This document shows, piece after piece, positions 4,719-51,600 of a stretch of DNA of 64,000 nt; positions within the stretch are counted from its first letter, which is position 1, and each line of letters begins with the position of its first letter. The notes beneath the pieces are model-generated. The model made no database searches. It was not told the origin of the DNA and saw only the letters and a program-made list of their open reading frames with translations. A program made the translations under genes and the position numbers. The DNA is from an uncultured Clostridia bacterium (lineage in GTDB: Bacteria; Bacillota; Clostridia; Christensenellales; Borkfalkiaceae): positions 164-64,163 of the forward strand of contig CAYXWN010000004.1 in assembly GCA_964468815.1 (NCBI GenBank), written 5' to 3'.

Positions 4719-4820
4719 CCTCTTAATTCCTTTTTACTATCATAACATACGGCGACGGAATTTGCAAACAATTTATTTTTTTATTTGACAAAATTTTCGA
4801 TTTTTTTTCTTTCAAATCAT

Positions 4821-4848: not shown

Positions 4849-4852
4849 AGAA

Positions 4853-4879
4853 TTAGCACTTGAATAAAAAGAGTGCTAA
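4853..4879 (+). promoter_or_regulatory. CIRCE operator (HrcA binding site)
   Basis: TTAGCACTT-N9-GAGTGCTAA is a near-perfect match to the consensus TTAGCACTC-N9-GAGTGCTAA. Confidence 0.92.
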
Positions 4880-4917
4880 CACTATTAGGAATCAATTGCA
4901 AGGAGGCAAACGAAGTT

Positions 4918-5202
4918 ATGAATATCAGACCTTTATTCGACAAGGTTGTGGTAGAAGCTTGCGAAGCGCAAGAAACCACGAAGTCGGGATTCATTCTCCC
5001 CTCTTCCGCACAGGAAAAACAACAGACTGCAAAAGTTGTTGCGGTCGGCCCCGGAGGCGTAATCGACGGGAAGGAAGTCGTTATGCAGGTAAAAGTCGGT
5101 GAAACCGTTCTCTACTCGAAATACGCAGGAAGCGAATTTAAAGTAGACGGAAAGGAATTCACCATCATCCGTCAAAGCGATATTTTGGCGGTCGTAGAAT
5201 AA
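4918..5202 (+). CDS. groES: Co-chaperonin GroES
   Basis: 94 aa starting MNIRPLFDKVVV. AGGAGG lies upstream of the ATG at 4918; the track ORF starts earlier at 4873. Confidence 0.97.
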   Translation: MNIRPLFDKVVVEACEAQETTKSGFILPSSAQEKQQTAKVVAVGPGGVIDGKEVVMQVKVGETVLYSKYAGSEFKVDGKEFTIIRQSDILAVVE

Positions 5203-6843
<1,641 letters not shown>

Positions 6844-7750: not shown

Positions 7751-7751
7751 T

Positions 7752-8654: not shown

Positions 8655-8665
8655 GACAATTCTCC

Positions 8666-9496: not shown

Positions 9497-9497
9497 C

Positions 9498-10400
9498 TTA
9501 TTCGTTCTCCTTTCGGCTTATAAGTTCGATATAGTATTCTTCCAAACCGATTTTGTTCTTTTTGATTTCGTTAACCACAAACCCTTTTTGAATGAGGTAT
9601 TCCACGATTTCTTCGGAAACGTCCGCGTCGTAAACGCGGATGCAGTCTTCTTCCATACGAACGGTCGCGTATTTTTCTTCCAACGCCTTAAACGCGCCGC
9701 GCATATCCGCCGTTTTAAGAGAGGTAAACACACGCGCGCGGCTTTCCATTTCTTTTGCGGAGAGTTCCGCAATCATTTTTCCCTGCCGAATGATCCCGTA
9801 ATGGGTGGCAATCTTTTCGAGTTCGCCCAAAATATGCGACGAAATCAAAACGGTACAGCCGTAAGATTGTGTGATTTCCGCGAGAATTTCTCGCATGATC
9901 CGCATACCGTCCGTATCCAGCCCGTTAATCGGCTCGTCCAATATGAGCAGCGCGGGAGTACCCAAAAGAGCCATAGCGATGCCGATCCGCTGTTTCATGC
10001 CGAGCGAACAACTCTTGAATTTGAGCGTTTTACTCTCTTCCATGCGAACGATTTTCAGCACGCGGTCGATTTCTTCTTCTCTGTTTTCAAGCCCCAAATT
10101 GATCGCCTGCATCATTAAGTTTTGGTATACGCTAGAATTAGGAAAACACCCTGCGTTTTCGATCAACGCGCCCACGCGTACCCGTACGCCGGCATCCGTA
10201 TAATCTCTGCCAAACAACTTAATTTCTCCGCAGTCGGGCACAAGGTGTCCGCAAATGAGTTTTTCCGTCGTGGATTTTCCCGATCCGTTCTCCCCGATAA
10301 AGCCGTAAATACTGCCGACGGGAACGGTCATGTTCAAGCCGTTTACGGCGTACATACCGCGAAAACTCTTTGAAAGTCCTTTTATTTCAATCGCGTTCAT
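9498..10400 (-). CDS. ABC transporter ATP-binding protein (copy 2)
   Basis: 300 aa. It shares long identical stretches with copy 1 (GLNMTVPVGSIYGFIGENGSGKSTTEK). Confidence 0.9.
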   Translation of the reverse strand: MNAIEIKGLSKSFRGMYAVNGLNMTVPVGSIYGFIGENGSGKSTTEKLICGHLVPDCGEIKLFGRDYTDAGVRVRVGALIENAGCFPNSSVYQNLMMQAINLGLENREEEIDRVLKIVRMEESKTLKFKSCSLGMKQRIGIAMALLGTPALLILDEPINGLDTDGMRIMREILAEITQSYGCTVLISSHILGELEKIATHYGIIRQGKMIAELSAKEMESRARVFTSLKTADMRGAFKALEEKYATVRMEEDCIRVYDADVSEEIVEYLIQKGFVVNEIKKNKIGLEEYYIELISRKENE

Positions 10401-34774: not shown

Positions 34775-34803
34775 TTTGCACCTTTATTGCTATTTGCGGT
34801 CGT

Positions 34804-35808
34804 TTATTTCGGCGACGCAACCGATTTACGAATCACGATTTCCGTTTCGTATTTTTCAAACGTTCCTATTACGTTATTTTCAATACTGTGCGAAAGGATA
34901 TCGAAAACCTTTCGCCCGTATGCGTTTTTATCATAAGTTACGGTAGTCAGCGCGGGACTTACGAAATTAGAATACAATATATCATCAAAGCCGACGACCG
35001 AAACGTCTTCGGGAACGCGGATTCCGCGTTTTTGCAACTCGCTTAACGCACCGTACGCCATTAAGTCGTTCGTCGTAATGATTGCAGTGGCTTTACAACC
35101 GCTCTCTATCAACTTCGCCGTAAGTTGCATACCTGTTTGAACGGAAGTGTCATACGGATATTCGTTATCGATCACCGTACCTTCCTTGCCCATAAGATTC
35201 CTGTATTCGTCCTTAAACGCCTTATACCGTAAGTCTACCGTATCTTCCCTCAACCCGGAAAGATACGCAATATCGGTATGCCCGACCGATTTTAAATAAG
35301 CGATCAGTTTGCGCATACCTTGTGCCATGTCGATTTCGACACAGCCGTATCCCAATTTAAAATTATCGAATTTGTTACCCGTCACGACCTTTATTCCGTT
35401 TTTCGTAAATTTGTCGATAACGTTCGATACTACGTCGGAATTGATAAGCGAAATATACACGCCGTCAATTCTCCGTGAAATAAGATCGGCAACTTGATTG
35501 CGGAAGCCGTTCATCGCGTCCGCAAAATACACGGCATAGCCTGCCTGCGACGCGCTTTCTTGAAACCCGTGGAATATTTCGCCGAAAATCGGGTTGGATA
35601 CGTCGTTAACTAAGATTGCAACCGTGTACGTTTTCTTTTTCGTCATACTCTTTGCAATCATGTCGGGCTTATATCCGTATTGCTCGACCACGGACAATAC
35701 TCTTTGCGTCACCTCATCGGAAAACTTTCTGCTATTGTTTAAGATATAAGAAACCGTTTGCTCCGACACTCCGGCTATTTTTGCTATATCTTTTCTGGAT
35801 ATGCGCAT
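34804..35808 (-). CDS. LacI-family transcriptional regulator
   Basis: N-terminal HTH ([23 protein letters not shown]) plus a periplasmic-binding-protein-like sugar sensor domain. The ATG at 35808 is preferred over the GTG at 35823. Confidence 0.9.
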
Positions 35809-35872
35809 ACTTCCTTTCCCCACAAACTATATCGTCTACTTTCTTTTTCTGCCGTTTTTTGATTCCGTTTCA

Positions 35873-36203: not shown

Positions 36204-38099
36204 TTATCTAGCGCGCTTTTTTCCGAAAACGAACGCTGCCGCCACCAAAAGAACGATTGCGCCAACCGCAAACGAAGCGTCTAACGAAGAACCGCAACCC
36301 GGCTTTTCCGCAACGATTACCTTTACGGTGTACTCATTGCCGTTATAGGTAATTTTTACGGTCTGCTCGCCGGACGTCGCTTTGTCGTAATCGGAAACCG
36401 TAAAGTCTGCCGCGGATACGCTAACGTTCTCGCTCTCTTTTCCGCTTGCGTACTTTTTAACCACCTTGATCGTGGAAAGATCGAAATCCTCGTTATACTC
36501 GTATTCCGCCTTGGTTACGCTTACTTCGTAGGACTCTACGTCCGCAACCTCTACTTCAAAGGTCGCCGTAACGTTCTGATTCAATACCGTCTTCGTTACG
36601 GATACCGTTTGCTTGCCAACCGTGTTTTTGTCAAATCCGTTTACGGTTAAATCCGCGAGCGTCAACGTTTCCGTCGTTCCGTCCATATACGTAAGTTCAA
36701 AAGAACCGCCGCTCAATTCTTCGCCGTAACTCACGTTTGCAGGAGCGGTCGTAACCGTCAAACCGGACGCGTAATTCGCAACCTCCGTATCCGAAACGAT
36801 ATACCATTTCATATTGCTGATAACCGTTTCGCCGTTGGTTCTGTCACCGAAGGAGAATACGGGGACGTATTCGTCGGGTAAAATTTCCTTATCGACAACG
36901 GAAGCCCATACTTTACCGTCAACGGTCAATTTCGCGCTTACTTTTTTGCCGCTGTATTCGACTTTTACTTTATACGAACCGCCTGCGGGGAATGCCGTTC
37001 CGGAAACGGGAAGTTCGTGACAAATTACTTCTGTGTAGTTACCTACTTCATCGCAACGTTGGAACAAATAGCACGTTCCCGCACCGCCGGACATACCTGC
37101 GCGGAAATGGAACTCATACGTATCAATTCCGTTCTTTGCAAAGACGAGGAACGGAACAGTCCAAGATCCCGTCGTTCCCGGGGTAATCGTCGCTTCCATA
37201 CCGAAGGTCAATTCGTTGACAGCCTTCTCACTACCGTCTGCAAAACGAACCTTACCGTCCGTTACGCTGCTGACAACGGTGGGAATGTATACGCGGGAAT
37301 CGTCACCGTACAGCATGACCTCGCCCGTTTCTGCGTCATAGAAGTTCTTTCCCCAATCGGTTGCACCGAAATTCAAAAGGTTGGTGTATTCGGGTTCGGG
37401 AATTACCACAACGCCCTCTTTAACGTAGAAGCGCATGTTACTGAATTCAGCATCTTTGATCTTTCTGTCGCCAAGTCCGAACACGGGCGTGTAGCCGTCC
37501 GGCAAATCGATTTGAACGTTCGATACGTCAAGACGCGTCGTCGTACCGTTTACGAGAATCTTAACGGAAACGGTCTTTGCCTTATATTCCATATGAATGG
37601 TATAAGAATCGCCGACCGCGATAGGAGCATTGTTTCCGCCAAACTCTTTTACCGTTCCCTTATCCAGATCCCCTTCTCTCGCAAACGCATATACGCTGCC
37701 GACTCCGTTACGGTCATGCAACTCATATGCTACGTCTCCGTCTTGCGCGAAGATCAAGAAAGGTACTTGCCACGTAGCGACCGCAGCAGGCTTTACGGTT
37801 ACCTCAGCCACGAAGGTAACTTCATCTACCCCCTTCGTAGAGCCGTCGGTAAACTCCAACTGCGTATCCGCCGCGATGGGCAGAAGTGTTTGGAAATACA
37901 AACGAACGTCGTCGCCTGCCATTTTCAGCGTACCGGTTTCGGCGTTGTACGTATGATTCCCATAATTGGTCTTTCCGAAATCCAAAAGATTTTGGATTTC
38001 GGATTCGACAGTCGAATCCGCCGCAAATGCAGGACAGACTGCCAGTGCCGTCGTAACGACGAGTGCAAAGGTCAACATCATGATTAAAATTTTTTTCAT
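36204..38099 (-). CDS. Secreted protein with duplicated ~205-aa beta-sandwich module, Ig-like domains and a C-terminal G-C-G-S + TM + basic-cluster signal
   Basis: 631 aa. Signal peptide ...AVCPAFA/AD. Two internal repeats (NLLDFGKTNYGNHTYNAETG... and NLLNFGATDWGKNFYDAETG...). Ig-like strands (GKQTVSVTK, GEQTVKITYNG). The C-terminus is EKPGCGSSLDASFAVGAIVLLVAAAFVFGKKRAR. Confidence 0.8.
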   Translation of the reverse strand: MKKILIMMLTFALVVTTALAVCPAFAADSTVESEIQNLLDFGKTNYGNHTYNAETGTLKMAGDDVRLYFQTLLPIAADTQLEFTDGSTKGVDEVTFVAEVTVKPAAVATWQVPFLIFAQDGDVAYELHDRNGVGSVYAFAREGDLDKGTVKEFGGNNAPIAVGDSYTIHMEYKAKTVSVKILVNGTTTRLDVSNVQIDLPDGYTPVFGLGDRKIKDAEFSNMRFYVKEGVVVIPEPEYTNLLNFGATDWGKNFYDAETGEVMLYGDDSRVYIPTVVSSVTDGKVRFADGSEKAVNELTFGMEATITPGTTGSWTVPFLVFAKNGIDTYEFHFRAGMSGGAGTCYLFQRCDEVGNYTEVICHELPVSGTAFPAGGSYKVKVEYSGKKVSAKLTVDGKVWASVVDKEILPDEYVPVFSFGDRTNGETVISNMKWYIVSDTEVANYASGLTVTTAPANVSYGEELSGGSFELTYMDGTTETLTLADLTVNGFDKNTVGKQTVSVTKTVLNQNVTATFEVEVADVESYEVSVTKAEYEYNEDFDLSTIKVVKKYASGKESENVSVSAADFTVSDYDKATSGEQTVKITYNGNEYTVKVIVAEKPGCGSSLDASFAVGAIVLLVAAAFVFGKKRAR

Positions 38100-38120
38100 T
38101 TTAACCCCTCCTAAAAAATT

Positions 38121-39032
38121 TCAGATGAATTTATTCCATACCGCCAACGCGATAAATGTCACAATACAAAGAACGTACGTAAGAATCGAATTTCGATCCA
38201 AGCGCGGTTCTTCTTTTGCAAACTTAACGCGAAGCGGCTTGAATAACAGAATTGCGCAGGCAAGCGACGCAAACGTCACCGCACCGCAAAACAGGGCGCA
38301 TAAAAGCGCGGTTTCCCTCGACGTTACCCCGTACGCAGACAGAGGCAACACCCAATACGAGGGAATAATTACTTGCAGACATTCAAAGATAACTGCAAAG
38401 AGAAAGGGAAACACCGCTCGATCGGTCGCCGCGTAAATCAAACTTGCAACTACGCCAAGCAGCAACAATCGCAAAAAGATGGAAGAGTCGTAACACACGA
38501 GCGCGGATAAAACGCAAGGCAATAAATATCCGACAAAGGAATTACCGTATGCGATTTTCCCAAGATAGCGAAATACGTATTCCCGTAAAAGGGTAACGAT
38601 CACGCCGTTTACCAATAAGGATAAAACAAGTTGCCACGCACTCGGTCGAACGGGCATGGAAAGAGAAATTCCTCCCGTGATCGCAGAGCGAAAGCCTGCA
38701 ACCGTGTACGATAAATAGGTATACAACAACCACGCAGTCATTGCGAGTAAGATTACGAAAACGAATTGTTTTTTCTCTATCGGCGCAGGCGAATCTCTAT
38801 ACGTCGATTCCGTCCCAGAATATTTTTTCTCGGTGTGCACCAGCACTACCGTCGGAATCGCAAACACGACAAACGGTTGTAAGCCGTACAGCAAAATCAC
38901 CGACCACAATTCGCTCGCAAATTTTGCAATTACCAACGAATAGAGAAACCCGATGAGCAACATATAAAAAGTCGCAATCTGAAAGGACGTTTTCCTTATA
39001 CGCAAGTCGGGATCAAACAGAATATTTTTCAT
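38121..39032 (-). CDS. Polytopic membrane protein (~9 TM), CPBP/Abi-like fold with degenerate catalytic motifs
   Basis: 303 aa. The segment TLLREYVFRYLG ... SALVCY ... GVVASLIYAATDRAVFPFLFAVIFECLQ follows the spacing of the CPBP motifs (EExxxR, FxxxH, HxxxN). The first Glu is Arg and both His are missing. Confidence 0.6.
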   Translation of the reverse strand: MKNILFDPDLRIRKTSFQIATFYMLLIGFLYSLVIAKFASELWSVILLYGLQPFVVFAIPTVVLVHTEKKYSGTESTYRDSPAPIEKKQFVFVILLAMTAWLLYTYLSYTVAGFRSAITGGISLSMPVRPSAWQLVLSLLVNGVIVTLLREYVFRYLGKIAYGNSFVGYLLPCVLSALVCYDSSIFLRLLLLGVVASLIYAATDRAVFPFLFAVIFECLQVIIPSYWVLPLSAYGVTSRETALLCALFCGAVTFASLACAILLFKPLRVKFAKEEPRLDRNSILTYVLCIVTFIALAVWNKFI

Positions 39033-39891
39033 AGATCCCCCATAAATAACTTTTTATTTCTTCGCGATCCAACAGCGCGAAGTAGGTTGACTTGCCGTTC
39101 ACGGTGCTTCTCTTTTCTTTCCGTCCGATTCGGTAATAAACCGTCGGTTTCAATTCGCAAAAAGGTTCTGCGCGAAACGCTTCCCGTCCGGTAAACGTAC
39201 AATTCAGCGTAATTTCTTCCCCCGCGCGCAAAATCACTTCGTCGTTCCATTCTCCGTAAACGTAATCGGCATCGTAATATCCCGTACTTTGCTCCATTCC
39301 TTGGAGTTGAACGGACAATCCCGTAATGAATACGTCCGTCTCTCCGTTGTTGATGATTTTTACGTTGTAACTGTTCAGTTCGGAGGCGTTTTGCGTATAC
39401 CCCGAATAAGACAGCACGTCGTCATCGTCCCCGACGGTAAGATCGAGATAAACCCGACCGATCGGAAAACTTTTCTCCGTTCCGTCCGATAAAACCAGAA
39501 CGGCTTGCGTGAGTGTTGCTGTGTATTCGGTAAAGTCATTTCGGTCCAACACGCAAACGATACGATAACTTGCAAAATAAAAATCAGAAAAGATCACCTG
39601 CAAACTCATATCTTTTAAAGAATACGGCTTTCCGTCTTGATCGCGCAAATACATTTCCTTGCTCGCCAGAAAGGACAGTCCGCCTTTCACCTCGTATACT
39701 TGCAAGGTGAAGTAGGGGTTGTACGCCTTTTCGGAAAAGGAAAGAGAATGTTCGTGATCGGCAAAGTATACCCCTGCGGGCGGAAAAGAACGCTTTTCCG
39801 CAAACATAACGCACACTCCCGAAACCGAAAAGGCGATACACGCCACTACGCAAATTGCAATTGCCGTAAGAAACCCGGGCAACTTTTTCAT
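39013..39891 (-). CDS. Single-pass (N-terminal anchor) extracytoplasmic protein, unknown function
   Basis: 292 aa with N-terminal TM FLTAIAICVVACIAFSVSGVCVMF. A 20-bp overlap with the downstream membrane-protein gene suggests translational coupling. Confidence 0.7.
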   Translation of the reverse strand: MKKLPGFLTAIAICVVACIAFSVSGVCVMFAEKRSFPPAGVYFADHEHSLSFSEKAYNPYFTLQVYEVKGGLSFLASKEMYLRDQDGKPYSLKDMSLQVIFSDFYFASYRIVCVLDRNDFTEYTATLTQAVLVLSDGTEKSFPIGRVYLDLTVGDDDDVLSYSGYTQNASELNSYNVKIINNGETDVFITGLSVQLQGMEQSTGYYDADYVYGEWNDEVILRAGEEITLNCTFTGREAFRAEPFCELKPTVYYRIGRKEKRSTVNGKSTYFALLDREEIKSYLWGIYEKYSV

Positions 39892-39902: not shown

Positions 39903-42900
39903 TTAAATCGAAACGTTTTCTATTTTTTCCTCTGCGCCAAGTCCGTACACGAACACGTCGCTGATTCTCGTACGTGCATTGACCGCTTCAAACGCGAACG
40001 CACCGCCGCGCGCAATGGTATCCGTATACGTGAGAACGGGCTTACCGCTCAAATCGGGACGGGCAGACGCGTTTGCAAATACGCGAACGGTCTTGTTTTG
40101 TACCGCTACCGTCAAATACATTTTACCTACCGCAAACTCGCTCGAAAGTTTATGTGAAGCAACGATTTCCCCGTCTATTTCCACAAACAACTCCTTAGAG
40201 AGCGTCATACCGATTTTCATGATACCGTCGCAATTTTCGCCGTAACCGACCGAACCGCCGAACACGAATGCAAAGTAAATATCCGAACTCGGTTGACTGC
40301 GCTGGAATTGCGACACTTTGAAAGAAACCAAGCAATCGGTAACGCCGTTTGAAAGAACGTACATTTCCGAATTGGGATTATAGATCTCCCCGGACGAAAC
40401 GCTCACTCCGCCGTATACGGGATAATCGTCCGAATAACTTTGACATTGATAATTGCATAAGCGGATCGCCGCTTTATGCGTTTGCCAACGAGGTGCTCCG
40501 CTCGTCGCGGTAAAACCAGAAACCGTAATAACCGTTTCGGCAAGTCCGCCGATCGAAACGGTTAACACCTTGCTATCCGTATATTGTACGAAGATTCGGG
40601 TATCCTTTTCTTTATCGTAATCGGGAATCGTATATTCTTTTACCGCGCTTCCGTTTTGATAAAGTGCAAGTTTTCCGTTCGGATAGAGGCGTACCGAGTT
40701 GTTCTCAGAACCGCCGAACACGAACGCCGCATACGAATCCGCCGACGATTTTACAAACTGTACCATATAGTCCGAACGGAAATAAGTAAATGTCTGCCCT
40801 GCGCGCAACGTTGCCGTTTCCGCATTTGCGTCACTTTGCAACAATCCGCCGTTGGTCATCTTCCAATTACCGCCCGAAACCGAATAGCCGACTACACCGT
40901 ATTCGCCGAAATTAATATTATTGAGCGAGAGAACGCCCTGCCCTGCGTGCGCCGACAAACTGTGTCCGTCGTTTACCGCATCGCCAAAGCAATAATATTC
41001 AAACGTCGCCTCGCCTTTCCCCACGTTGCATACACCGGCGTTCATATCCGAAAAGTTTGCAATCAAATGGCTGCCTAACGTTTGGAACGAACCGTTTACG
41101 GTCTTATACCGTGCTACCCAATTCGCGCCCGTACGTTCGATTTGGAATACAAGTTCACCGCTTACGTCGGGAAGAGAACCGTTCAACATCAACGATCCGT
41201 TTTCCACTAAGCCGAACGCAAGTTTTACGCCGCCGTCCAAATAGGCTCTGCCTGCAAACAAATAACTGTTTGCCGTTTGATAGACAACAACGCCCATCAA
41301 ATCACCGACTTGCTTGGGAGAACCGCTCATCTGCGCTTTTACCGTAAAGTCGCGCATTTGCGCATGCGTTAAGGCAAATACGCCCGTTTCGCTTGCCGCA
41401 AGTTTCAACTTGCCGTTCGCGATGCTCGCTTTTTCTGCTTCTCCCGCATAGAACGTCATCGAATCGGTCGCTTTATCGAACTGCGTGCTGCGTTGATTTT
41501 CTTCCGCGTTCATCGTGAGTACGACGTTTTTCGCCTTTCCCTCACCGTTCACGCCGCCGATTGCAGCGACTCCCTCGTACGACATTTCCACGTAACATTC
41601 GCTGTTCGCTTGTTTTGTTCCGTCTAACGTCACGTAGAAGAGATTATCGTTACTTCTTACAAGTTCGATCTTCTGTCCTGCTTTTATCGTCAACGTAGCC
41701 ACCGTTTTTTCCGTACCGCCGGCACTCTCGCGCGCCTTCACTACTAACTGCGTTCCGCCGATCTCCGCGCCGTAATACGCCGCGTCCGCTTTCTTGCCTG
41801 CGCGCAACGCCGCCAATACGTTCCCTTCCGCGACAAGCGAAAGTCTTGCATTGTTATAGATCGGCAAGGTTGCGAACGAGCCGCTTCCCTCTACCGTCAA
41901 CTCGTCTACGTTCGTCTGACGGATTACGCCGCCCTCTCCGTTTACTTGCCATTTCCCTGCCCAAGCGTTGGACGCTTTATTGGTAAGCAACGCGCCGTAC
42001 GGCATTACGTCGATCGTAATTTTTCCGTCTTGCACGGTATAAGAATTTCCCGAAAGATAATCGTAAATCTTCTCGCCGTTTTTCACTTCCATCGTGTGAA
42101 CGTCAAGTTCTAAGCCCTTGCAGACGTTCCCCGTTGGATTTAAGATCGTCAAAATGGACGTTCCTTGATACGAACGCTGGTATTTTAATAAAAGATTCGT
42201 TTCGTCTACACCCAGTTTGCGAATGATTCCGTACTTAAATAAATCTTTATTCTCTGCACGAAATTGTCCGAGTGCTTTATATAAGTTAAAAATATCGTAG
42301 TTCCAAGTCGTTCTGTCCCAATTCATGGACTCGAAAAAGGAATGGTCGTACCGACTTGTCATTCCGATTTCCTCCCCGTAGAAAAGGGAGGGTGCGCCCA
42401 TATACGTCATCAATAACAGATGAACGGACGTCGCCTTGCTTACATTTCCGTTGGCTGCGTTTTCGTCAAGTAAACGCATCGTATCATGGTCTGCGGAAAT
42501 CGTGTAAAGCGACAATCCCGTTGCGCGCGGCAACGTCGCTACCGTGTTAAAGCAATTTTCTTCCAAACTAGCCAAGGTGTCCGCGGAAACTTGCGCCGAC
42601 GCAAATCTGCGAACGCCTGCTAAAAATTCTTGACTCCAATAGGTATCCGCCGCATAATCAGTGTACATGGTAGAGGCCGACGCGTTTTCAATACACAGCA
42701 AGGAATCGGGCGCAACCTCTTTCATATACTTACGCATATCCTGAATAACCTTCGTTCCGTTGGTATTCGTTCCTCCGAACAGAACGGAGGAATCCAAACG
42801 CCAACCGTCCAAGCCGAATTCCGTCAAATAATACTGCATGACCGAATCGGGAGAAGAGTAAACTAAACGTTGCGAAGTTGCCTTTCCCAAATCAATAATC

Positions 42901-43946
42901 GGGCCGAACTGATTGGACTGAATTTTCCCGTTTTGATCGCGCGCAAATACCGAATAATACGGAGAAGAGAGATTTTCGGCATTTTCGGTAAACCAAGTGT
43001 TTCCCCCGTTTACGTAAATGGAATTGGTTACCAAAAACGCAAACACGCCGTCCATCATGAATTTCATATCGTTCGCGTGCAATTCGTCCGTTAAGATACG
43101 CAACATTTCTTCGCTTCCGAACGTAGAATCCAAATTCGTGAGATCGAACGCGCCGTATCCGGCATTGTGATTTGCAAGCCAAATGGGATTGATGTAAACC
43201 CCGTCTATGTTCAACTCATTGAAAAAATCGATTTTTTCGTACAATCCCTTCAAGTCTCCGCCGAAATAATCCAAGCCGCCGGTGTGCGTGAGCCCCCAAA
43301 CGTCTTGAGTGATTCCTCCGCCGTACTTATCCGAGAACGTTTCTCCGTTGAAAAAACTATCCGGCATGGCGGAATACCACAACGCGCCCTTAGACCAATC
43401 GGGTGTGGAGAAGTTGATTTGCGACAAAAAATCATGAGAGAGAGTTTCGGGAAACCCCGTTTCGCTCTCCTTGCTCTGCTGCATATTGTAACAAACAGAG
43501 CCTACGTTGTTTTTCACAACGAAGTGGTAACGGTACGAGGTACTTTGCGGAGGGACTTCGCATTTATAATAATCGTAGTAGCCGTTTACGTCCGCATAGT
43601 CGAATTCCATGGGAACGTCGTTCCAAGCACATTCTTCCGCACTCGCCTTGCTCAAATCCGTTGTGTAACGCAAGGTTACTTCCGTCGCGTTTTTACGACG
43701 AACACGTAACCGCATTGTAACGGTATCGGTATCTTTCGGTTCGATATGCGAAACGTACACGTCCCCGATATCGTGGAATATTTCACCCGTAACGATCGGC
43801 TCGTCTACAAGGGATACGGCATCGTCCGTCTGTGTTCCGCCGCAACCGATCACGCATAAACTCGCGCACAAAAATACGCAAACCGAGCATACAATCAATA
43901 ATAAGTTTTTCGCTTTATAAAACATCGCGTTTTCCCCTTTTCGCAT
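39903..43946 (-). CDS. Surface lipoprotein alpha-amylase-family enzyme (GH13, neopullulanase/cyclomaltodextrinase-like N-terminal half) with ~650-aa C-terminal extension (copy A)
   Basis: Lipobox VIGC. GH13 regions seen: DGVFAF, DGWRLDS, CIEN and SADHD. The C-terminal half consists of LamG/jelly-roll-like modules. The start codon ATG at 43946 overlaps the upstream stop (TAATG); the ATG at 43925 is an alternative. Confidence 0.88.
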   Translation of the reverse strand: MRKGENAMFYKAKNLLLIVCSVCVFLCASLCVIGCGGTQTDDAVSLVDEPIVTGEIFHDIGDVYVSHIEPKDTDTVTMRLRVRRKNATEVTLRYTTDLSKASAEECAWNDVPMEFDYADVNGYYDYYKCEVPPQSTSYRYHFVVKNNVGSVCYNMQQSKESETGFPETLSHDFLSQINFSTPDWSKGALWYSAMPDSFFNGETFSDKYGGGITQDVWGLTHTGGLDYFGGDLKGLYEKIDFFNELNIDGVYINPIWLANHNAGYGAFDLTNLDSTFGSEEMLRILTDELHANDMKFMMDGVFAFLVTNSIYVNGGNTWFTENAENLSSPYYSVFARDQNGKIQSNQFGPIIDLGKATSQRLVYSSPDSVMQYYLTEFGLDGWRLDSSVLFGGTNTNGTKVIQDMRKYMKEVAPDSLLCIENASASTMYTDYAADTYWSQEFLAGVRRFASAQVSADTLASLEENCFNTVATLPRATGLSLYTISADHDTMRLLDENAANGNVSKATSVHLLLMTYMGAPSLFYGEEIGMTSRYDHSFFESMNWDRTTWNYDIFNLYKALGQFRAENKDLFKYGIIRKLGVDETNLLLKYQRSYQGTSILTILNPTGNVCKGLELDVHTMEVKNGEKIYDYLSGNSYTVQDGKITIDVMPYGALLTNKASNAWAGKWQVNGEGGVIRQTNVDELTVEGSGSFATLPIYNNARLSLVAEGNVLAALRAGKKADAAYYGAEIGGTQLVVKARESAGGTEKTVATLTIKAGQKIELVRSNDNLFYVTLDGTKQANSECYVEMSYEGVAAIGGVNGEGKAKNVVLTMNAEENQRSTQFDKATDSMTFYAGEAEKASIANGKLKLAASETGVFALTHAQMRDFTVKAQMSGSPKQVGDLMGVVVYQTANSYLFAGRAYLDGGVKLAFGLVENGSLMLNGSLPDVSGELVFQIERTGANWVARYKTVNGSFQTLGSHLIANFSDMNAGVCNVGKGEATFEYYCFGDAVNDGHSLSAHAGQGVLSLNNINFGEYGVVGYSVSGGNWKMTNGGLLQSDANAETATLRAGQTFTYFRSDYMVQFVKSSADSYAAFVFGGSENNSVRLYPNGKLALYQNGSAVKEYTIPDYDKEKDTRIFVQYTDSKVLTVSIGGLAETVITVSGFTATSGAPRWQTHKAAIRLCNYQCQSYSDDYPVYGGVSVSSGEIYNPNSEMYVLSNGVTDCLVSFKVSQFQRSQPSSDIYFAFVFGGSVGYGENCDGIMKIGMTLSKELFVEIDGEIVASHKLSSEFAVGKMYLTVAVQNKTVRVFANASARPDLSGKPVLTYTDTIARGGAFAFEAVNARTRISDVFVYGLGAEEKIENVSI
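41277..42118. repeat. 842-bp segment 100% identical to 45266-46107 (copy A side)
   Basis: Compared line by line at a constant offset of 3989, with no mismatch seen. The first mismatches are at 41276/45265 and 42119/46108. Confidence 0.93.
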
Positions 43947-46900
43947 TAAGCGAATTTACGGTTTTGATAAACCGCGGTCGATTCATAGTTTTCGCTTTCT
44001 CTCATTCCGTACACGTTAAAATCGGAATGTTCAAATCTGCCGTTTACGCCGTATACGCTTACTAAGCCGCCGCAAGCACACTTCGTATCATATTCCACGA
44101 CGGGATTTGCCGAGAACGTGCCGTCGTTCGCTTGATCGACGAACAGTTTTATCGTTCCGTCCTGCACGACCAAAGTCAAGTATACGGTAACGTTTTTGTA
44201 GGCAGATCCAAGATTTACGCTAGCAAGTTTTTCTCCGTTGTACGAAATGTACGCTTCTTGACGGGAACTAATCCCTGCAAAGTATGCGTCCTTTACACCG
44301 CCGTTAGACGAACCGCCGAACGCAAACCCGAGTTCCGCTCTGTTCAAAATATTCGTCTGTTGAATCGTGGTAATCTTCAACGTTGCCACGAACTCCGTCG
44401 CGTATGCAAGATTATGAGAAGCCGTATAACTTTGGAACTGCATATCCGCGATTTTATAAGAAGCCTTACTTCCCTCGATATAAACCGCGCCGACTTGATA
44501 ATCGGTGAGCACCGTGTGGAAGATCAATTCCATTTCCGTCCCTACGTAAACGGACAGTCTGCCGCTATCGGTCATAACCGCAATGATACGCAAAGGTTGT
44601 TCGGTTACGTTCTGCACGGTATGGCTTCCTAAGGATTTCGTTCCGTTCAGCAATTCGATCTTTCCGCTTTGTTCGAAGCGCAGAGAATAATCTCCGCCGA
44701 ACCGCAAAGCAACGTTGCCGCCCTGTCCTGCTTTATAAATCACGACCGAATAGTCTGCTCTGAACCCCTTAAAAGAGCCTTGCGTGTTTTTCAACGTCGT
44801 TGTTGCCGCCGTTTCGTCACTCTGCAAGAAGCCTCCCTGCACCATTTCCCAAGTGCCGCCTTCCGTCCGATACGCCACAACCGAATACGAGCCGGACTGC
44901 CCCGACCAACGGTTGACGTTACCGTATCCTGCATGTGCAGACAAACTGTGTCCGTCGTTTACCGCGTCGCCGAAGCAATAATATTCAAACGTTGCTTCAC
45001 CCGTCCCCAAATTGAACACACCTGCGTTCATATCCGAAAAGTTCGCGCACAAGCCCTCTGCCAACAAAGTAAAGGATTCTTGTTCGGGCGTTTTATATCT
45101 CGCCGTCCAATAAGCGCCGAGTCTTTCCAGCTGTATCACGATATCGCCGCTTACGTCTGTCTCTTCGGCAAATATCGTAACTTGTCCGTTCACGGATTGT
45201 CCCAAAACGAGTTTCACGCTTCCGTCTAAATAGGCTCTGCCTGCAAACACGTAATTATTTGCCGATTGATAGACAACAACGCCCATCAAATCACCGACTT
45301 GCTTGGGAGAACCGCTCATCTGCGCTTTTACCGTAAAGTCGCGCATTTGCGCATGCGTTAAGGCAAATACGCCCGTTTCGCTTGCCGCAAGTTTCAACTT
45401 GCCGTTCGCGATGCTCGCTTTTTCTGCTTCTCCCGCATAGAACGTCATCGAATCGGTCGCTTTATCGAACTGCGTGCTGCGTTGATTTTCTTCCGCGTTC
45501 ATCGTGAGTACGACGTTTTTCGCCTTTCCCTCACCGTTCACGCCGCCGATTGCAGCGACTCCCTCGTACGACATTTCCACGTAACATTCGCTGTTCGCTT
45601 GTTTTGTTCCGTCTAACGTCACGTAGAAGAGATTATCGTTACTTCTTACAAGTTCGATCTTCTGTCCTGCTTTTATCGTCAACGTAGCCACCGTTTTTTC
45701 CGTACCGCCGGCACTCTCGCGCGCCTTCACTACTAACTGCGTTCCGCCGATCTCCGCGCCGTAATACGCCGCGTCCGCTTTCTTGCCTGCGCGCAACGCC
45801 GCCAATACGTTCCCTTCCGCGACAAGCGAAAGTCTTGCATTGTTATAGATCGGCAAGGTTGCGAACGAGCCGCTTCCCTCTACCGTCAACTCGTCTACGT
45901 TCGTCTGACGGATTACGCCGCCCTCTCCGTTTACTTGCCATTTCCCTGCCCAAGCGTTGGACGCTTTATTGGTAAGCAACGCGCCGTACGGCATTACGTC
46001 GATCGTAATTTTTCCGTCTTGCACGGTATAAGAATTTCCCGAAAGATAATCGTAAATCTTCTCGCCGTTTTTCACTTCCATCGTGTGAACGTCAAGTTCT
46101 AAGCCCTGACATACGTCGCCGTTGGGGTTTAAGATCGTCAAAATGGACGTTCCTTGATACGCACGTTGATATTTTAACAAGAGATTTTCTTCGTCTACAC
46201 CCAAAGCGCGAAGCGTGCCGTACTTGAACACTCCTTCGTTTTCGCTACGGAACTGTCCCAACGATTTGATCATGTTAAAAATATCGTAATTATAGGTGCT
46301 TCTATCCCAATTCATTCCAACAAAGAAGCGGTTCACGTCCAGCGTGCCGGTTTCTTCCCCGTAGAAAATAGTGGGAGAGCCCATGTACGTCATTACCATT
46401 AAATACAACGACTGCGCTTTTTGAACGTCACCGTCCATCAATTCCAAAATACGGGAACAGTCGTGATTGGTCAGCATATTATAACTGGAATGCGCTACCG
46501 AACGCGGAAGTCCCAACACGGCTTCGTACAGATTGGAAGAAAGCAAATTCAACGTGGATTTGTTGATTTTTCCGTCCATAAACGCTTCTACCGCTTTTAA
46601 GAACCGTTGATTCCAATAGGTATCCGCCGCATAATTGGTATACATACCTGCTTCGTTTGCATTTTCCAAGCAAAGTAACGAATCGGGAGCGACTTCTTTC
46701 ATATACTTACGCATATCTTGAATCATCTGCGTACCCGTTCTGCCATCGGATGCAACGAATAAAATAGCAGAGTCCAAACGCCACCCGTCTACCCCACATT
46801 CGGTCACGTAATATTGCATGATGGAATCGGGTGTAGAATAAATCAACTTTTGCGCTTCCTCGCTTGCAAAGTCTACCACGTATCCGAATTGGTTCGTCTG

Positions 46901-47950
46901 CAAATTACCTTGCGTATCGCGCATGAATACACTGTAATAATCATTTTCCGAACCTCTTCCCTCGGTGGGCCAAAGGTTGGAAGAATTTACGTATTTGGAA
47001 TTTCCTACGAAATAATTGAATACGCCGTCGAACATCAGCCGCATATTGTTGTTATGCAATTCTTCGGTCAGTTTTTTCAGCATTTGCTCGTTACCGAAAG
47101 TAGAGTCAAGCAACGTGCCGTCGAAAAATCCGTAGCCTGCGTTATGATTGGCAAGCCATACGGGATTGATAAAGAGCGCCGTACAATTAAGTTCTTTCAA
47201 ATAATCAATTTGATCGTACAATCCTTGCATATCGCCGCCGAAATATCCCAAACCGCCGGAATGAACCGTTCCCCACGGAGTCTGCGAAATCGCGCCGCCG
47301 TATTTATCCCCCGTCGGATCGGAATTGTAAAAACTGTCCGGCATAGCGGAATACCACAACGCGCCCTTAGACCAATCGGGTGTGGAAAAATTAACCTGCA
47401 AGAGGAAATCCTTGCTGAATCCGTTAAACGGATTGATATAATTCCCACTAGAATCCTTTGTCGTAAGTTCGATATCTCTGCCTGCGTAAAACGCCGTTTG
47501 CTTGTTGTTCGACACAACGAAGTGATAGCGATATGCCGAAGGCTGCGCGGGAATCACTCCCTTATAATAATCGTAATACTTGTTTACGTCAGCCTTTTCA
47601 AAGGTAAGAGGCGCGCTCTTCCATTCGATTCCGTCGCCGCTAACCTTGTCAAGGTCGGTCGTCCACTCAACGGTCACGTTCGTCACGTTTCCGCGGCGAA
47701 CGCGTAACCGCACGGTAACGTCCTCTTGATCCGTCGGTTCAAAAGTAGAAAGATACACGTCGCCTTGATCGTGAAAAATTTCTTCCGTTATAAGATTTTC
47801 GTTAACCAATTCGTCCGACGGTTGCTCGGTTACCTCGCCGCCCTCTCCGTTATTGCACCCGATCAAGCCAACCGCCGCGCAAAACAACACGAATGAAAAC
47901 AATAATAACAAAAATCCTCTGATTGATTGATAAGTTTTTGCAGTTTTCAA
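43946..47950 (-). CDS. Surface lipoprotein GH13 enzyme with long C-terminal extension (copy B)
   Basis: 1334 aa from a TTG start at 47950 preceded by AGGAGGGG. Lipobox LIGC. GH13 regions seen: DGVFNY, DGWRLDS, CLEN and TNHD. Confidence 0.88.
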   Translation of the reverse strand: MKTAKTYQSIRGFLLLLFSFVLFCAAVGLIGCNNGEGGEVTEQPSDELVNENLITEEIFHDQGDVYLSTFEPTDQEDVTVRLRVRRGNVTNVTVEWTTDLDKVSGDGIEWKSAPLTFEKADVNKYYDYYKGVIPAQPSAYRYHFVVSNNKQTAFYAGRDIELTTKDSSGNYINPFNGFSKDFLLQVNFSTPDWSKGALWYSAMPDSFYNSDPTGDKYGGAISQTPWGTVHSGGLGYFGGDMQGLYDQIDYLKELNCTALFINPVWLANHNAGYGFFDGTLLDSTFGNEQMLKKLTEELHNNNMRLMFDGVFNYFVGNSKYVNSSNLWPTEGRGSENDYYSVFMRDTQGNLQTNQFGYVVDFASEEAQKLIYSTPDSIMQYYVTECGVDGWRLDSAILFVASDGRTGTQMIQDMRKYMKEVAPDSLLCLENANEAGMYTNYAADTYWNQRFLKAVEAFMDGKINKSTLNLLSSNLYEAVLGLPRSVAHSSYNMLTNHDCSRILELMDGDVQKAQSLYLMVMTYMGSPTIFYGEETGTLDVNRFFVGMNWDRSTYNYDIFNMIKSLGQFRSENEGVFKYGTLRALGVDEENLLLKYQRAYQGTSILTILNPNGDVCQGLELDVHTMEVKNGEKIYDYLSGNSYTVQDGKITIDVMPYGALLTNKASNAWAGKWQVNGEGGVIRQTNVDELTVEGSGSFATLPIYNNARLSLVAEGNVLAALRAGKKADAAYYGAEIGGTQLVVKARESAGGTEKTVATLTIKAGQKIELVRSNDNLFYVTLDGTKQANSECYVEMSYEGVAAIGGVNGEGKAKNVVLTMNAEENQRSTQFDKATDSMTFYAGEAEKASIANGKLKLAASETGVFALTHAQMRDFTVKAQMSGSPKQVGDLMGVVVYQSANNYVFAGRAYLDGSVKLVLGQSVNGQVTIFAEETDVSGDIVIQLERLGAYWTARYKTPEQESFTLLAEGLCANFSDMNAGVFNLGTGEATFEYYCFGDAVNDGHSLSAHAGYGNVNRWSGQSGSYSVVAYRTEGGTWEMVQGGFLQSDETAATTTLKNTQGSFKGFRADYSVVIYKAGQGGNVALRFGGDYSLRFEQSGKIELLNGTKSLGSHTVQNVTEQPLRIIAVMTDSGRLSVYVGTEMELIFHTVLTDYQVGAVYIEGSKASYKIADMQFQSYTASHNLAYATEFVATLKITTIQQTNILNRAELGFAFGGSSNGGVKDAYFAGISSRQEAYISYNGEKLASVNLGSAYKNVTVYLTLVVQDGTIKLFVDQANDGTFSANPVVEYDTKCACGGLVSVYGVNGRFEHSDFNVYGMRESENYESTAVYQNRKFA
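45266..46107. repeat. 842-bp segment 100% identical to 41277-42118 (copy B side)
   Basis: Same comparison as for 41277-42118. The block is in frame in both genes. Confidence 0.93.
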
Positions 47951-47977: not shown

Positions 47978-48838
47978 TTACCCTTTTACCGCGCCTGCCG
48001 CTACGCCGTTCAAAAAGTATTTCGAGAAGAACGAATAGATCAGCAAGATCGGAATACACATGATGACGAGTCCTGCACACAAAACGCCGTACATCGAACC
48101 GTTTTGCGCCTGAAAATTAATTAGTGCAAGCGGTAACGTTTGCGCCTTTGCGTTGGTCGGCAACACAATAAAAGGCCAAAAGAAATCATTCCAATAAGAA
48201 GTAAAGGTCGTAATCGCTACGTACGACAGTACGGGTTTGATCAAAACGAAATCGATATGGAAGAAAATTTGCCACACCGTCGCCCCGTCCAAACTTGCCG
48301 CCTCATGCAAATCGTTCGGAATATTTTTTACGTAAGTAACGCCTAAAAACACTCCCGTACCAGAAATCGCAATCATCGCCGGCAATAACAACGCCCACAG
48401 CGAATCGATCAATCCGAGTTCGCGCATCATCAAAAACAACGGGATTGTCGTTACTTCGCCGCTGATAAACATCGTAAACAACAGCATGTAGAATATAATC
48501 GCCGATCCCTTGTACTTCAACACGCCGATCGCAAAGATCGTGAGCGCCGTGGTAAAAGTTTGGACCACGACCGCTGCCGCCGATACGGTAAAGCTGTTGA
48601 TTACGTTGGTGGAAAACCCTCCTTTCACCCACGCGTCCGAATAATTTTCGGGGTGGGCGAAAGAAAGGGAAAAAGGAGATTTTATGAATTCCCCACGCGT
48701 TTTGAACGACGTACTCAAAACGAACAATAGCGGATATAAAATAGCGATTGTAATAAGCGTTATAATGATTCCGAGGATAATATTAACGATCAGATCGATG
48801 CGTTTTTGTCTTGTAAGGCTCGCTTCTTTCTCACTCAT
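47978..48838 (-). CDS. Carbohydrate ABC transporter permease (MalG-like)
   Basis: 286 aa. The EAA loop is HEAASLDGATVWQIFFHIDFVLIKP. Confidence 0.9.
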   Translation of the reverse strand: MSEKEASLTRQKRIDLIVNIILGIIITLITIAILYPLLFVLSTSFKTRGEFIKSPFSLSFAHPENYSDAWVKGGFSTNVINSFTVSAAAVVVQTFTTALTIFAIGVLKYKGSAIIFYMLLFTMFISGEVTTIPLFLMMRELGLIDSLWALLLPAMIAISGTGVFLGVTYVKNIPNDLHEAASLDGATVWQIFFHIDFVLIKPVLSYVAITTFTSYWNDFFWPFIVLPTNAKAQTLPLALINFQAQNGSMYGVLCAGLVIMCIPILLIYSFFSKYFLNGVAAGAVKG

Positions 48839-49730
48839 AAATACTTTCCACCTTTGCCATTAACTTGTTCGTAACCACCGTAAACGCTCCTAAAATAATC
48901 GATAACATAAAGGACATTACGATTGCCCACCCCATGCGGTTCATTTTAAACGCATAGTTATAGATAATCAAACCGACCGGTCTTGTTTCCGGCATAGTAC
49001 CGCCTTCCAACATAAAGAACATATCGAAAGATTTCATTCCGCCGACAAACGAAAGGACCAAATTCATTTTGGTTGCCGAAATCGTCAACGGAAAAATAAA
49101 ACGCCACAAAATCGTCCAGCGGTTTGCCCCGTCTATGGTTGCTCCTTCCAAAACCTCTTTGGAAACGGCGTTCATATTAACGAAGTATAAAACCATGGTA
49201 ACGCCTACAAAACGCCACGTGTTTGCGATAATGATAGACCAAAACGCAATATTCGGATCGTTCAGCCAAAGAACCTGCTCCCAGCCGAGTAATCCCCAAA
49301 TTTTTGCAAGCAAACCGACGTCGTATTCATAGATAAAACGCCACATGACGGCAACGACCGTACTCGGTAAAACGCACGGAATGTACAACAAAACTCTGTA
49401 CACCGATTGTAAGCGTTTTCCCATGGAATACAACAGATATGCAAGGAAAAAGCCTAAAACCGTTTGGAGAAGGGTAGAAATAAAGGAAAATTTCCCGGCA
49501 ACCCAAATTCCGTTCCAAAAATCGCCTGCATATTCCGAAAACAGCCACACGTAATTTTGAAAACTATTCCATTTCAAATTGGTAACGGTACCGCGTATTC
49601 CCGTAAAACTCAAAAAAAACGAAAACACAATCGGATATGCAATTAAACAGAGCACGCTGACGATCGCAGGAATGGACATAACCCATCCGTAAATCGTCCG
49701 TTGCCTATTGAAAGCCTTCGTATTTAACAT
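48831..49730 (-). CDS. Carbohydrate ABC transporter permease (MalF-like)
   Basis: About 299 aa from the ATG at 49730, preceded by GAGAGGA. The EAA loop is LEGATIDGANRWTILWRFIFPL. It has an 8-bp overlap with the next gene. Confidence 0.9.
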   Translation of the reverse strand: MLNTKAFNRQRTIYGWVMSIPAIVSVLCLIAYPIVFSFFLSFTGIRGTVTNLKWNSFQNYVWLFSEYAGDFWNGIWVAGKFSFISTLLQTVLGFFLAYLLYSMGKRLQSVYRVLLYIPCVLPSTVVAVMWRFIYEYDVGLLAKIWGLLGWEQVLWLNDPNIAFWSIIIANTWRFVGVTMVLYFVNMNAVSKEVLEGATIDGANRWTILWRFIFPLTISATKMNLVLSFVGGMKSFDMFFMLEGGTMPETRPVGLIIYNYAFKMNRMGWAIVMSFMLSIILGAFTVVTNKLMAKVESIYE

Positions 49731-49746
49731 CGAGTCCTCTCTTTCT

Positions 49747-51243
49747 TTAACCGTTTGCCGTCGGCATTTCTGCAAGACACCACGCTTTATATGCCTCTAT
49801 ATTGGCGGTATTGCGCGTATAGGTGCTTTCAATAACCTTTTTAGCGGGATTATTATACATTAAATTCTTTAAAGCCGCGCCTAACTGCGTATATCTCTCT
49901 TTTACGATATCGAGTGCAGTTCCCTTCGAGTTGTCCCCCGAAGCGTAGTACGAAATGTTATCGCCGGTCGCATTCAACTTAGACGTAGCGTTATAATCGG
50001 GTACGAAATCGTACAACGCTGTAAACGTCATCGTTTCAACCATTTCTTGCTGTACCTTGTTTTCGTAGACAACGTTCTTGTTCGCCATAATCGAAAGCGT
50101 GCTGTCACTGAAAATCTGTTGCGCGGAATCGCTCAGCAAATATTCAACGAATTTTTTAGCCGCAGCCTTTTTCGTGCTAGAACTGGAAATACACCATCCG
50201 TCGTATCCGCCGTAAGAATAACCGTAGGTACTCTTATATCCGTCGATCGTATTGAAAACCGCGGGTGCGGGTAAAGTCATAACGCCAACCTCGAAATCCG
50301 CTTGATCGGTGATTTCGTTGAGCAAATTGTTATTGCACATTACCATTAAATAGTTTCCGTCGATAAAGCCCTTTTCACTAGCGTCTTCACCGCCTGCGAT
50401 CGGAGAATCGCCGAATACGCCCTTTCTGGTCCAATTTCTTAATTTTTCCATCGTCGCGGCGTACGCTTCCCAATCCGTTTCATCTTGCGTCAATCTGCCC
50501 GTAAGATAGTTCGGATCTGTATACATTCCGGAAAGCACGTCGTAATATGCAAACAATGCTCTCCACATAAACATAAACGTTCCGTTCGTTCCGTACACTT
50601 TGAGGGGTGCAACGCCCAAATCCGCAGCAAGAATATTGGAAAGAAGTTGTTCAAAATCTTCTAACGTTTCCGGTTGTTCCCAACCATATTCTTTAAATAC
50701 CGTTTTATTATAATAAATAACGAATCCGGTCGCACGGAAGGGAATATTATAATATCCGTCGCCGATTTTACCTAACTGCCATGCCTTTTCGTTCTTGAAA
50801 ATAGACATAAATTCTTCATCGTTAATGAATTGATCGGACAAATCCGCAGCCATAAACTCTTCGCCTTCGATCAAAATTTCACGCATTTGGTGAGACCAAT
50901 ACGAGAAAACGTCGGGCATCGTGCCGCCCATCCAAGCGGCGTTGATCGCACTCATCATGTTGTTGTAATCAGTCGTAGAATACTCAACCTTGATAGAGGG
51001 ATTTTCCTTGGTAAAGTTGGTCGCGATTTCATCAAACGCTTCCGCACATTCCGGCCAATAGTGCATAACGCGAATGGTTACGGGTTGTTGAACCACAGGG
51101 TCATCGCCGGGTGTTACGGGCTCTCCCCAATCTTCATTGCCATGCGATCCGCCGCCGCAGCCAACGAAGGCAAAGCAAGAAAGACACATGAGTAGCGCTA
51201 TAATAAACGCCAAAGGTTTCAAAAATAGTTTTGCTTGATTCAT
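49747..51243 (-). CDS. Extracellular solute-binding lipoprotein (CUT1 family)
   Basis: About 498 aa from the ATG at 51243. Lipobox FVGC. Confidence 0.85.
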   Translation of the reverse strand: MNQAKLFLKPLAFIIALLMCLSCFAFVGCGGGSHGNEDWGEPVTPGDDPVVQQPVTIRVMHYWPECAEAFDEIATNFTKENPSIKVEYSTTDYNNMMSAINAAWMGGTMPDVFSYWSHQMREILIEGEEFMAADLSDQFINDEEFMSIFKNEKAWQLGKIGDGYYNIPFRATGFVIYYNKTVFKEYGWEQPETLEDFEQLLSNILAADLGVAPLKVYGTNGTFMFMWRALFAYYDVLSGMYTDPNYLTGRLTQDETDWEAYAATMEKLRNWTRKGVFGDSPIAGGEDASEKGFIDGNYLMVMCNNNLLNEITDQADFEVGVMTLPAPAVFNTIDGYKSTYGYSYGGYDGWCISSSSTKKAAAKKFVEYLLSDSAQQIFSDSTLSIMANKNVVYENKVQQEMVETMTFTALYDFVPDYNATSKLNATGDNISYYASGDNSKGTALDIVKERYTQLGAALKNLMYNNPAKKVIESTYTRNTANIEAYKAWCLAEMPTANG

Positions 51244-51600
51244 TTTTTCCCTTTTCAACAAAGCCGATGGATTTTGAACGATGCGTTCAGCGACTTCGTT
51301 ATAATTTTCTTTTCATTACACCGAACGATACAAATAAAACGTACTTTTCGGCTTATAACGGCTGTTTTTCTTATACATAACAAAATATAAATAAGAACGT
51401 TCTCGCTTCAAAATCGTCGTCACCCGATCGGCATTTGACAAACGTTTTTCACGATTTTTCCAACCGTTTTCCGTAGCGTCGTGCGATCGGATTTTTCCCT
51501 TCAAGTCCGTCCAAACCGAAGCAAAAAATCCATCTTTTTTGAAAAATTCTTTCCGCAAAAGCCCCTGTTTTTTCGATCGCACATTGCTACTTTTTTGTTC

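Follow-up and report, generated by a model that had tools for sequence, protein, structure and literature searches.

Mosaic genes produced by conversion are known in bacterial families such as bab/sab of Helicobacter pylori and PE/PPE of Mycobacterium tuberculosis (in part, PMC13061034). Lasting, recurrent concerted evolution has been called rare: it was reported for 26 genes in 682 species, including tufA/tufB, psbA, amo/hao, and mtrA, and was attributed to ongoing gene conversion (Wang & Chen 2018, PMC6053082). Segmental interlocus conversion in tandem paralogues has been described for mammalian TLR1/TLR6 (PMC2077338) and modelled for HMA4 (bioRxiv 10.1101/2025.10.29.685298). We analyzed a stretch of 64,000 nucleotides (positions 164–64,163 of contig CAYXWN010000004.1, assembly GCA_964468815.1; hereafter the window, W) from an uncultured Clostridia bacterium of the Borkfalkiaceae, in which two tandem, directly repeated minus-strand GH13 genes encoding proteins with 59% overall identity share a central block of identical DNA. 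At a probability of roughly 0.85, we explain this block as the trace left by ectopic (interlocus) gene conversion that is still going on between the two genes. The upstream gene is termed B and the downstream gene A, and the corresponding copies in other genomes are designated up (B-type) and dn (A-type).

We compared the two genes at the nucleotide level. Positions 41277–42118 of gene A and 45266–46107 of gene B were identical at 842 of 842 positions with a constant offset of 3989, as had been claimed in the original prediction, which was made from the sequence alone, and the longest exact run at this offset had precisely these limits. Against a background of 65.2%, the codon-aligned nucleotide identity of the whole genes, the chance of 842 consecutive matches corresponds to a log10 P of about −156. 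The block lies in frame in both genes, and the two proteins share a run of 280 identical residues from ...LELDVHTMEVK... to ...GVVVYQ, in agreement with the predicted length of about 280 residues. Successive 50-nucleotide windows gave identities of 0.82, 0.86, 0.68, 0.70, and 0.60 outward from position 42119, and of 0.90, 0.68, 0.50, and 0.58 outward from position 41276. In codon-aligned windows of 30 codons, the two adjoining shoulders were 87% and 77% identical, and the sequences beyond the block and shoulders were 27–81% identical with third-position identities of 0.14–0.67, which confirms the sharp fall in the flanks that had been predicted. Mismatches did not continue across the block at the density seen in the flanks; the computed alignment contained none within it.

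The operon was then compared with related loci found through close homologues, namely six metagenome contigs (L001, L002, L003, L004, L005, and L008). Two of them, L001 and L008, come from strains of a single species, so that the six loci represent five lineages besides that of the window. Species-level lineages were called by divergence (orthologue nucleotide identity ≤84%) and not by taxonomy, and the between-species figures omit two pairs from within a species, L001/L008 and L004/L006. The dn copy of L004, a locus of Candidatus Borkfalkia ceftriaxoniphila, clusters with RXZ58273.1 of GCA_004134775.1. The database versions of A and B (P0001 and P0007) are each the sole member of their own 90% cluster, and the species of the window is represented by a single assembly. 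The operon order and the tandem GH13 pair were kept in all six further loci, with exact blocks of 984 (L001), 937 (L008), 1067 (L002), 1100 (L005), 1390 (L003), and 704 nucleotides (L004). Each block sits at the corresponding place in the gene and has its own sequence in each lineage, and the homogenized share amounts to only about 18–35% of the gene length.

Between species, the N-terminal segments were 69–83% identical in up–up and 66–84% in dn–dn comparisons, compared with 56–61% between up and dn copies, and the corresponding values for the C-terminal segments were 57–80%, 53–79%, and 43–49%. Both segments group by orthology, which indicates that the duplication had taken place before at least six Borkfalkia-like species-level lineages separated. 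In the core block, up–up and dn–dn identities between species were both 54–79%, whereas the two copies within a genome were 100% identical in the seven loci. The block groups by genome, which indicates concerted evolution. In the comparison with related genomes that the original prediction had called for, the block differed between species but not between the two copies of a genome. Synonymous divergence between the paralogues (pS, Nei-Gojobori) was saturated in the flanks, at 0.67–0.77, and fell to 0 within the block (0.006 for L004). Comparisons of the block across species gave omega values of 0.05–0.27, characteristic of purifying selection, with pS near saturation; these values indicate that the block is conserved at the protein level and not at the DNA level. 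Its amino-acid identity between species was 49–59%, compared with 46–57% for the C-terminal part.

A search of all 83 homologues recovered identical blocks in no group other than the close tandem-pair clade, and no two of the more distant protein matches had a long identical stretch in common. No Borkfalkia-like locus came up when the GTDB representative genomes were scanned, the matches being relatives at 26–35% identity only; even the GCA_004134775.1 locus was missed, and close relatives appear to be absent from that collection or masked there. The window contains a second tandem duplicate (7752–10400, minus strand), which consists of two pairs of an ABC ATPase and an ABC-2 permease. The ATPases share 62% protein identity with nucleotide patches of 78–87% identity at a spacing of 1743–1746, and no exact block was present. 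This duplicate serves as an internal control and indicates that the contig does not homogenize all of its paralogues. In regards to base composition, the G+C content of the GH13 block was 0.54, compared with 0.43–0.50 in the flanks, and G+C at third codon positions was higher in the block at all loci. GC-biased gene conversion was considered as a cause and rejected, since the higher G+C of the block mostly reflects amino-acid composition; the G+C excess at fourfold sites was not significant except in L005 (p = 0.005–0.03).

The block boundaries, given in the residue numbering of A, were 610–890 in the window, 578–906 in L001, 578–890 in L008, 548–902 in L002, 541–905 in L005, 541–1001 in L003, and 641–881 in L004. 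Across the loci, the left end fell between residues 541 and 641 and the right end between residues 881 and 1001, with abrupt transitions. The zone that forms the 5′ shoulder in the window is converted in other species, with left boundaries at residues 541–578, and conversion reaches further into the zone of the 3′ shoulder in L001, L002, L005, and L003.

Three conversion events could be read in terms of donor and recipient, and the downstream copy was the donor and the upstream copy the recipient in all three. The L001 and L008 strains are 99.4% identical over 17.4 kb, and L001_up has dn-type sequence at residues 891–897, whereas L008_up does not. In L003, the right-hand extension at residues 910–1000 was 67–70% identical to the dn orthologues and 57–58% identical to the up orthologues; this extension of about 300 nucleotides runs through roughly 40%-diverged sequence. 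The third event separates two allele types of Ca. B. ceftriaxoniphila. In type I (L004, L026, and L027), the paralogues differ at 44 sites in a 200-nucleotide stretch to the left of the block. In type II (L028–L031 and L033, from different samples), both copies are dn-type at 7628–7826 and the upstream copy has been replaced, so that it differs from the type-I up copy at 38 sites and from the type-I dn copy at only 7, and an exact run of 955 nucleotides results. The type II replacement is a real, recent, non-reciprocal transfer, because a 22%-diverged segment is not expected to be merged by an assembler.

Divergence between strains was raised in the block. In the comparisons of L001 with L008 (7173–7764 and 11162–11753) and of L028–L031 with L027 (7830–8580), the block diverged by 2.2–2.5% and the flanks by 0.2–0.9%. 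The strain differences in the block were mostly synonymous, with a nonsynonymous divergence (pN) of 0.004 and a pS of 0.065, compared with a pS of 0.006–0.014 in the flanks. Candidate causes of the raised divergence are import from other strains, mutagenic recombination, and the assembler's choice among paralogue variants.

Hybrid alleles were observed in assemblies of the same operon. L006 and L007 (10001–14041 in each), which are Ca. Borkfalkia ceftriaxoniphila-like, carry one GH13 gene composed of L004_up from residue 1 to about 620, the block, and L004_dn from residue 881. The sequence switches cleanly and only once, inside the block, between positions 8522 and 8583 relative to L026. Full-length hybrid proteins were seen in MEGAHIT, Logan, MGnify, and scaffold assemblies; the hybrid allele is considered real on this assembly-level evidence, since full-length forms occur across several assemblers. 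The hybrid cluster has 24 members, compared with 66–88 for the two parental genes in this one species. Judged from its sequence, the hybrid is as expected for the product of a crossover between direct repeats that would delete the unit between them. L006 also carries, upstream of the binding-protein gene (2678–6724), a LacI gene and a gene for a 979-residue protein without a Pfam match.

We mapped the block onto the protein domains using an AlphaFold model of A (residues 540–1347, mean predicted local distance difference test score 90.3). In this model, domain C comprises residues 574–655 and is followed by four β-sandwich domains at residues 666–812, 832–987, 1021–1170, and 1182–1335; the whole model matches neurexin/laminin LamG repeats and the C-terminal sandwich of GH43. 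By its similarity to A, B probably has four C-terminal LamG/ConA-like domains as well. The block spans the C-terminal half of domain C, LamG-like domain 1, the linker, and the first third of LamG-like domain 2, and LamG-like domain 1 sits wholly within the block in every locus. The original prediction had placed the block directly after the GH13 catalytic region and had regarded it as one homogenized module. Neither statement holds, because the block starts inside domain C, cuts both this domain and the second LamG-like domain, and has ends that vary by species and strain; it does not correspond to a protein module.

These observations can be accommodated in the following scheme, in which the machinery is assumed to be RecA-type homologous recombination. 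After an old duplication, the N-terminal/catalytic and C-terminal parts of the genes would have become too different for homologous recombination to act on them. Between these parts, about 0.7–1.4 kb would form a central island that is overwritten repeatedly and thereby stays similar enough for further overwriting, so that the process sustains itself. Tract ends would land where local homology allows, giving sharp, lineage-specific boundaries that are blind to domain limits, and resolution of the same recombination by crossover would delete a 4-kb unit and leave one hybrid gene. We infer that the middle of the genes tolerates conversion because both enzymes need the same thing there, and that in the flanks divergence prevents conversion or selection acts against it; flank conversions may be purged by selection if the two enzymes differ in function. 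A self-sustaining island is favored because the block ends ignore domains and vary by strain and because the block evolves about as fast as the C-terminal part. The original prediction had suggested recent non-reciprocal recombination. Gene conversion is supported by the pS of 0 in the block, the grouping by genome, and the donors that can be read in three cases, but a single recent event is not, because the process has run in all six species-level lineages since before their split.

Several points weigh against this reading. Every sequence compared, that of the window included, comes from a metagenome assembly, and the assembler may account for part of the exactness, as a collapsed repeat node that is traversed twice prints identical copies even if the true copies differ by a few percent. 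The Ca. B. ceftriaxoniphila reference GCA_004134775.1 (L026), from a sample in which the species was at 92% abundance, is also derived from a metagenome and is thus not independent proof against assembly effects. The flanking segments compared between L026 and L027 were identical, and the 16 differing sites all lay in the block region of the upstream copy (7890–8522), 15 of them at 8193–8522. L026 has 17 differences between its up and dn copies in the block (longest exact run, 302 nucleotides) and keeps distinct up (alpha) and dn (beta) haplotypes, whereas L027 has only two differences and carries beta in both copies. This contrast reflects either conversion between near-identical genomes or an assembler that merged or mis-assigned paralogue variants. 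Divergence of the block between assemblies was 3–7 times the flank level and was always mirrored in both copies; this is compatible with true differences between strains that were copied into both paralogues, but it could partly reflect the assembler's choice among paralogue variants. Selection for identity, as opposed to tolerated conversion, is a further point, though an unlikely one.

It is accordingly possible, although we do not favor it, that conversion is real and its exactness is inflated: the true copies would be about 96–99.9% identical, the assembler would have merged the rest, and the recency of the last event would be overstated. The contrast between L026 and L027 and the density of the mirrored single-nucleotide polymorphisms in the block agree with this possibility, as does the suspicious uniformity of the scaffolded assemblies, all of which except L026 have an exact run of at least 704 nucleotides. 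On the other hand, private strain polymorphisms (7968 and 8417, and a cluster at 8197–8279 in L004) do not derive from the alpha and beta variants of L026 and so resemble genuine differences between strains, carried by both copies, and a conversion rate that is high relative to mutation would make exact identity over about 1 kb unsurprising. Three non-scaffolded contigs, L038 (SPAdes), L039 (Logan), and L040 (MEGAHIT), begin within 100 nucleotides of the right end of the upstream block (19 before, 48 after, and 100 before it, respectively) and run straight through the downstream block. A genuine repeat in the read graph is expected to break contigs at its edge, as seen here for the upstream block, and a greedy traversal that marks used k-mers would break one copy of a repeat only, as in these contigs. 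We regard both the conversion process and an identity of the copies of at least about 96% as secure; exact identity at 842 of 842 positions in the genome of the window is probable, judged from the assembled sequence.

An unlikely explanation is that the identity is itself selected, for example by a shared fast-evolving surface partner or by hetero-oligomerization, or that the repeat is used as a recombination device between a two-enzyme and a hybrid state. The block persists in six lineages despite saturated synonymous sites between them, hybrid alleles are common in one species, and one entire LamG-like domain always lies within the block, all of which speak in its favor. However, the block ends disregard domains and differ between strains, and the rate at which the block evolves across species matches that of the C-terminal part. 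Self-sustaining conversion requires no selection, and deletion to the hybrid would be irreversible in the absence of a template, so that it would not constitute a true switch. If the identity were selected, the LamG-like domain and its neighbors would have to match in both surface lipoproteins to dock a common partner; if the repeat were a recombination device, a gut commensal would gain from it variation in the copy number and domain combination of a carbohydrate-active enzyme.

The original prediction had also considered an assembly artefact, in which the genes would be equally diverged in the block and the identity would be made by the assembler, by polishing, or by a chimeric or collapsed region. 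As the whole explanation, this is very improbable. Metagenome assemblies were used throughout, L026 and L027 disagree for what is essentially one strain, and double traversal of a collapsed node gives exact identity by construction. De Bruijn assemblers, however, can collapse only near-identical sequence, and even the least homogenized locus, L026, was still about 96% identical in the block compared with about 55–60% outside it. Moreover, the block groups by genome in six lineages across studies and assemblers, the 44 paralogue differences over 200 nucleotides (22% divergence) were erased in five independent assemblies, a roughly 40%-diverged segment of 300 nucleotides was replaced in L003, and the second tandem duplicate in the window was left unhomogenized. 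Constraint on a DNA or RNA element kept in both copies (promoter, structured RNA, or recombinase site) can be dismissed, because nothing specific points to it beyond a block G+C above that of the flanks, the block differs by 21–46% between species with omega values of 0.05–0.27 and near-saturated pS, and an Rfam search of the whole window gave zero matches, so that no RNA element explains the block.

The gene conversion reading concerns two genes whose products are GH13 enzymes of the neopullulanase/cyclomaltodextrinase-like type and, by sequence, putative α-glucan enzymes. Both proteins matched PF00128 and PF02903; the PF00128 matches in the A/B pair had E-values of 1e-26 and 8e-38, and weak matches to PF16657 and PF17851 were also present in B. 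Residues 54–654 of A matched the PDB sequences of TVAI, neopullulanase, and maltogenic amylase, the best solved structures being 1izk, 1ji1, and 1j0h (E about 1e-44 to 1e-48). All NCBIfam equivalog scores fell far short of their cut-offs, the best values being 172 bits against 568 and 160 bits against 540. The catalytic motifs GWRLD, (I/L)EN, and (D/N)HD of conserved regions II–IV, which supply the nucleophile Asp, the acid/base Glu, and the transition-state Asp, are kept in A and B (GWRLD, LEN, and NHD in B). Both proteins have lipobox-type N-termini (LIGC in B) and are predicted lipoproteins. The database version of A (P0001) has 1340 residues and starts 7 codons later than the longest open reading frame, and that of B (P0007) has 1314 residues. 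The start codons of both genes are uncertain: the ATG of the longest open reading frame of A (43925–43946) shares one base with the stop codon of B, and the TTG of B (47891–47950) yields a normal lipoprotein signal, with the database start lying 20 codons further on, inside the hydrophobic core. The coordinates of these features are summarized in Table 1.

Table 1. Positions in the window of the GH13 genes, the identity block with its shoulders, and the neighboring operon genes.
Feature	Position	Strand	Basis or remark
Upstream GH13 paralogue B, 1334 residues from TTG	43946–47950	−	Open reading frame; PF00128, PF02903; lipobox, catalytic motifs
Downstream GH13 paralogue A, 1347 residues	39903–43946	−	Open reading frame; Pfam; PDB sequence matches; AlphaFold; motifs
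Identity block, copy in B	45266–46107	−	Equals 41277–42118 at 842/842 positions
Identity block, copy in A, residues about 611–890	41277–42118	−	Offset identity, codon windows, AlphaFold model
Shoulder 5′ of the block in A (gene orientation)	42119–42330	−	60–86% identity to B, offset 3989
Shoulder 3′ of the block in A (gene orientation)	41100–41276	−	About 50–90% identity to B
Upstream operon genes: solute-binding protein (49747–51261), ABC permeases (48831–49775 and 47978–48838)	47978–51261	−	Pfam
Downstream conserved genes: 292-residue protein, 303-residue membrane protein, Big_3-domain protein	36204–39891	−	Pfam; conservation

The operon encodes, in order, the solute-binding protein, the two permeases, B, A, two unannotated membrane proteins, and the Big_3-domain protein, which bears a C-terminal transmembrane segment; a LacI regulator adjoins it. 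The two membrane proteins (38121–39891, minus strand) have 292 residues with one N-terminal transmembrane segment and 303 residues with about 8–9 hydrophobic segments, and neither gave a Pfam or NCBIfam match. Their genes are present in every related locus, which suggests that they are probably part of the same uptake/processing system. Downstream of the operon (31805–35823), the LacI regulator is accompanied by a 989-residue protein with a weak match to GH106 (α-L-rhamnosidase).

Kilobase-long identical blocks in paralogues break or distort short-read metagenome assemblies, and gene catalogues will hold up, down, and hybrid forms that need to be checked for reality. The uncultured lineage belongs to the human gut, and one of the species that carry the locus, Ca. 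Borkfalkia ceftriaxoniphila, was present in 35% of faecal samples from adults (PMC6839795). No direct precedent for gene conversion among paralogues of gut carbohydrate-active enzymes emerged from a non-exhaustive search of the literature.

In regards to known enzymes, A and B resemble neopullulanase, cyclomaltodextrinase, and TVAI in having an N-terminal Ig-like domain, a catalytic (β/α)8 domain with D/E/D motifs, and domain C. They differ from the characterized neopullulanase-like enzymes in their low identity, their lipoprotein signal, and about 690 extra residues arranged as four LamG/ConA-like domains. With the mosaic conversion systems, the pair shares conversion of part of the gene, sharp tract ends, distinct flanks, tract polymorphism between strains, and raised local diversity. 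Unlike the antigen families, its strain differences are mostly synonymous, with no sign of diversifying selection, and its products are predicted catabolic enzymes of a sugar-uptake operon. As in the surveyed cases of concerted evolution, which extend over at least 5 species, paralogues within a genome are closer than orthologues, here in six lineages and with the support of synteny. Those cases show near-full-length identity and mostly concern core complexes, whereas in the GH13 pair only the central 0.7–1.4 kb of a 4-kb gene is affected and the genes encode extracellular carbohydrate-active enzymes of uncultured gut Clostridia with ends diverged to saturation. One locus displays three outcomes of recombination, namely homogenization of the block, strain-specific extension of the tract, and deletion to a hybrid enzyme. 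The GH13 locus is a fresh case, restricted to a central segment, of an already known phenomenon and is not surprising in principle; it illustrates cleanly, across several species, a segment-restricted form of bacterial concerted evolution, a process whose surveyed cases are mostly full-length (PMC6053082).

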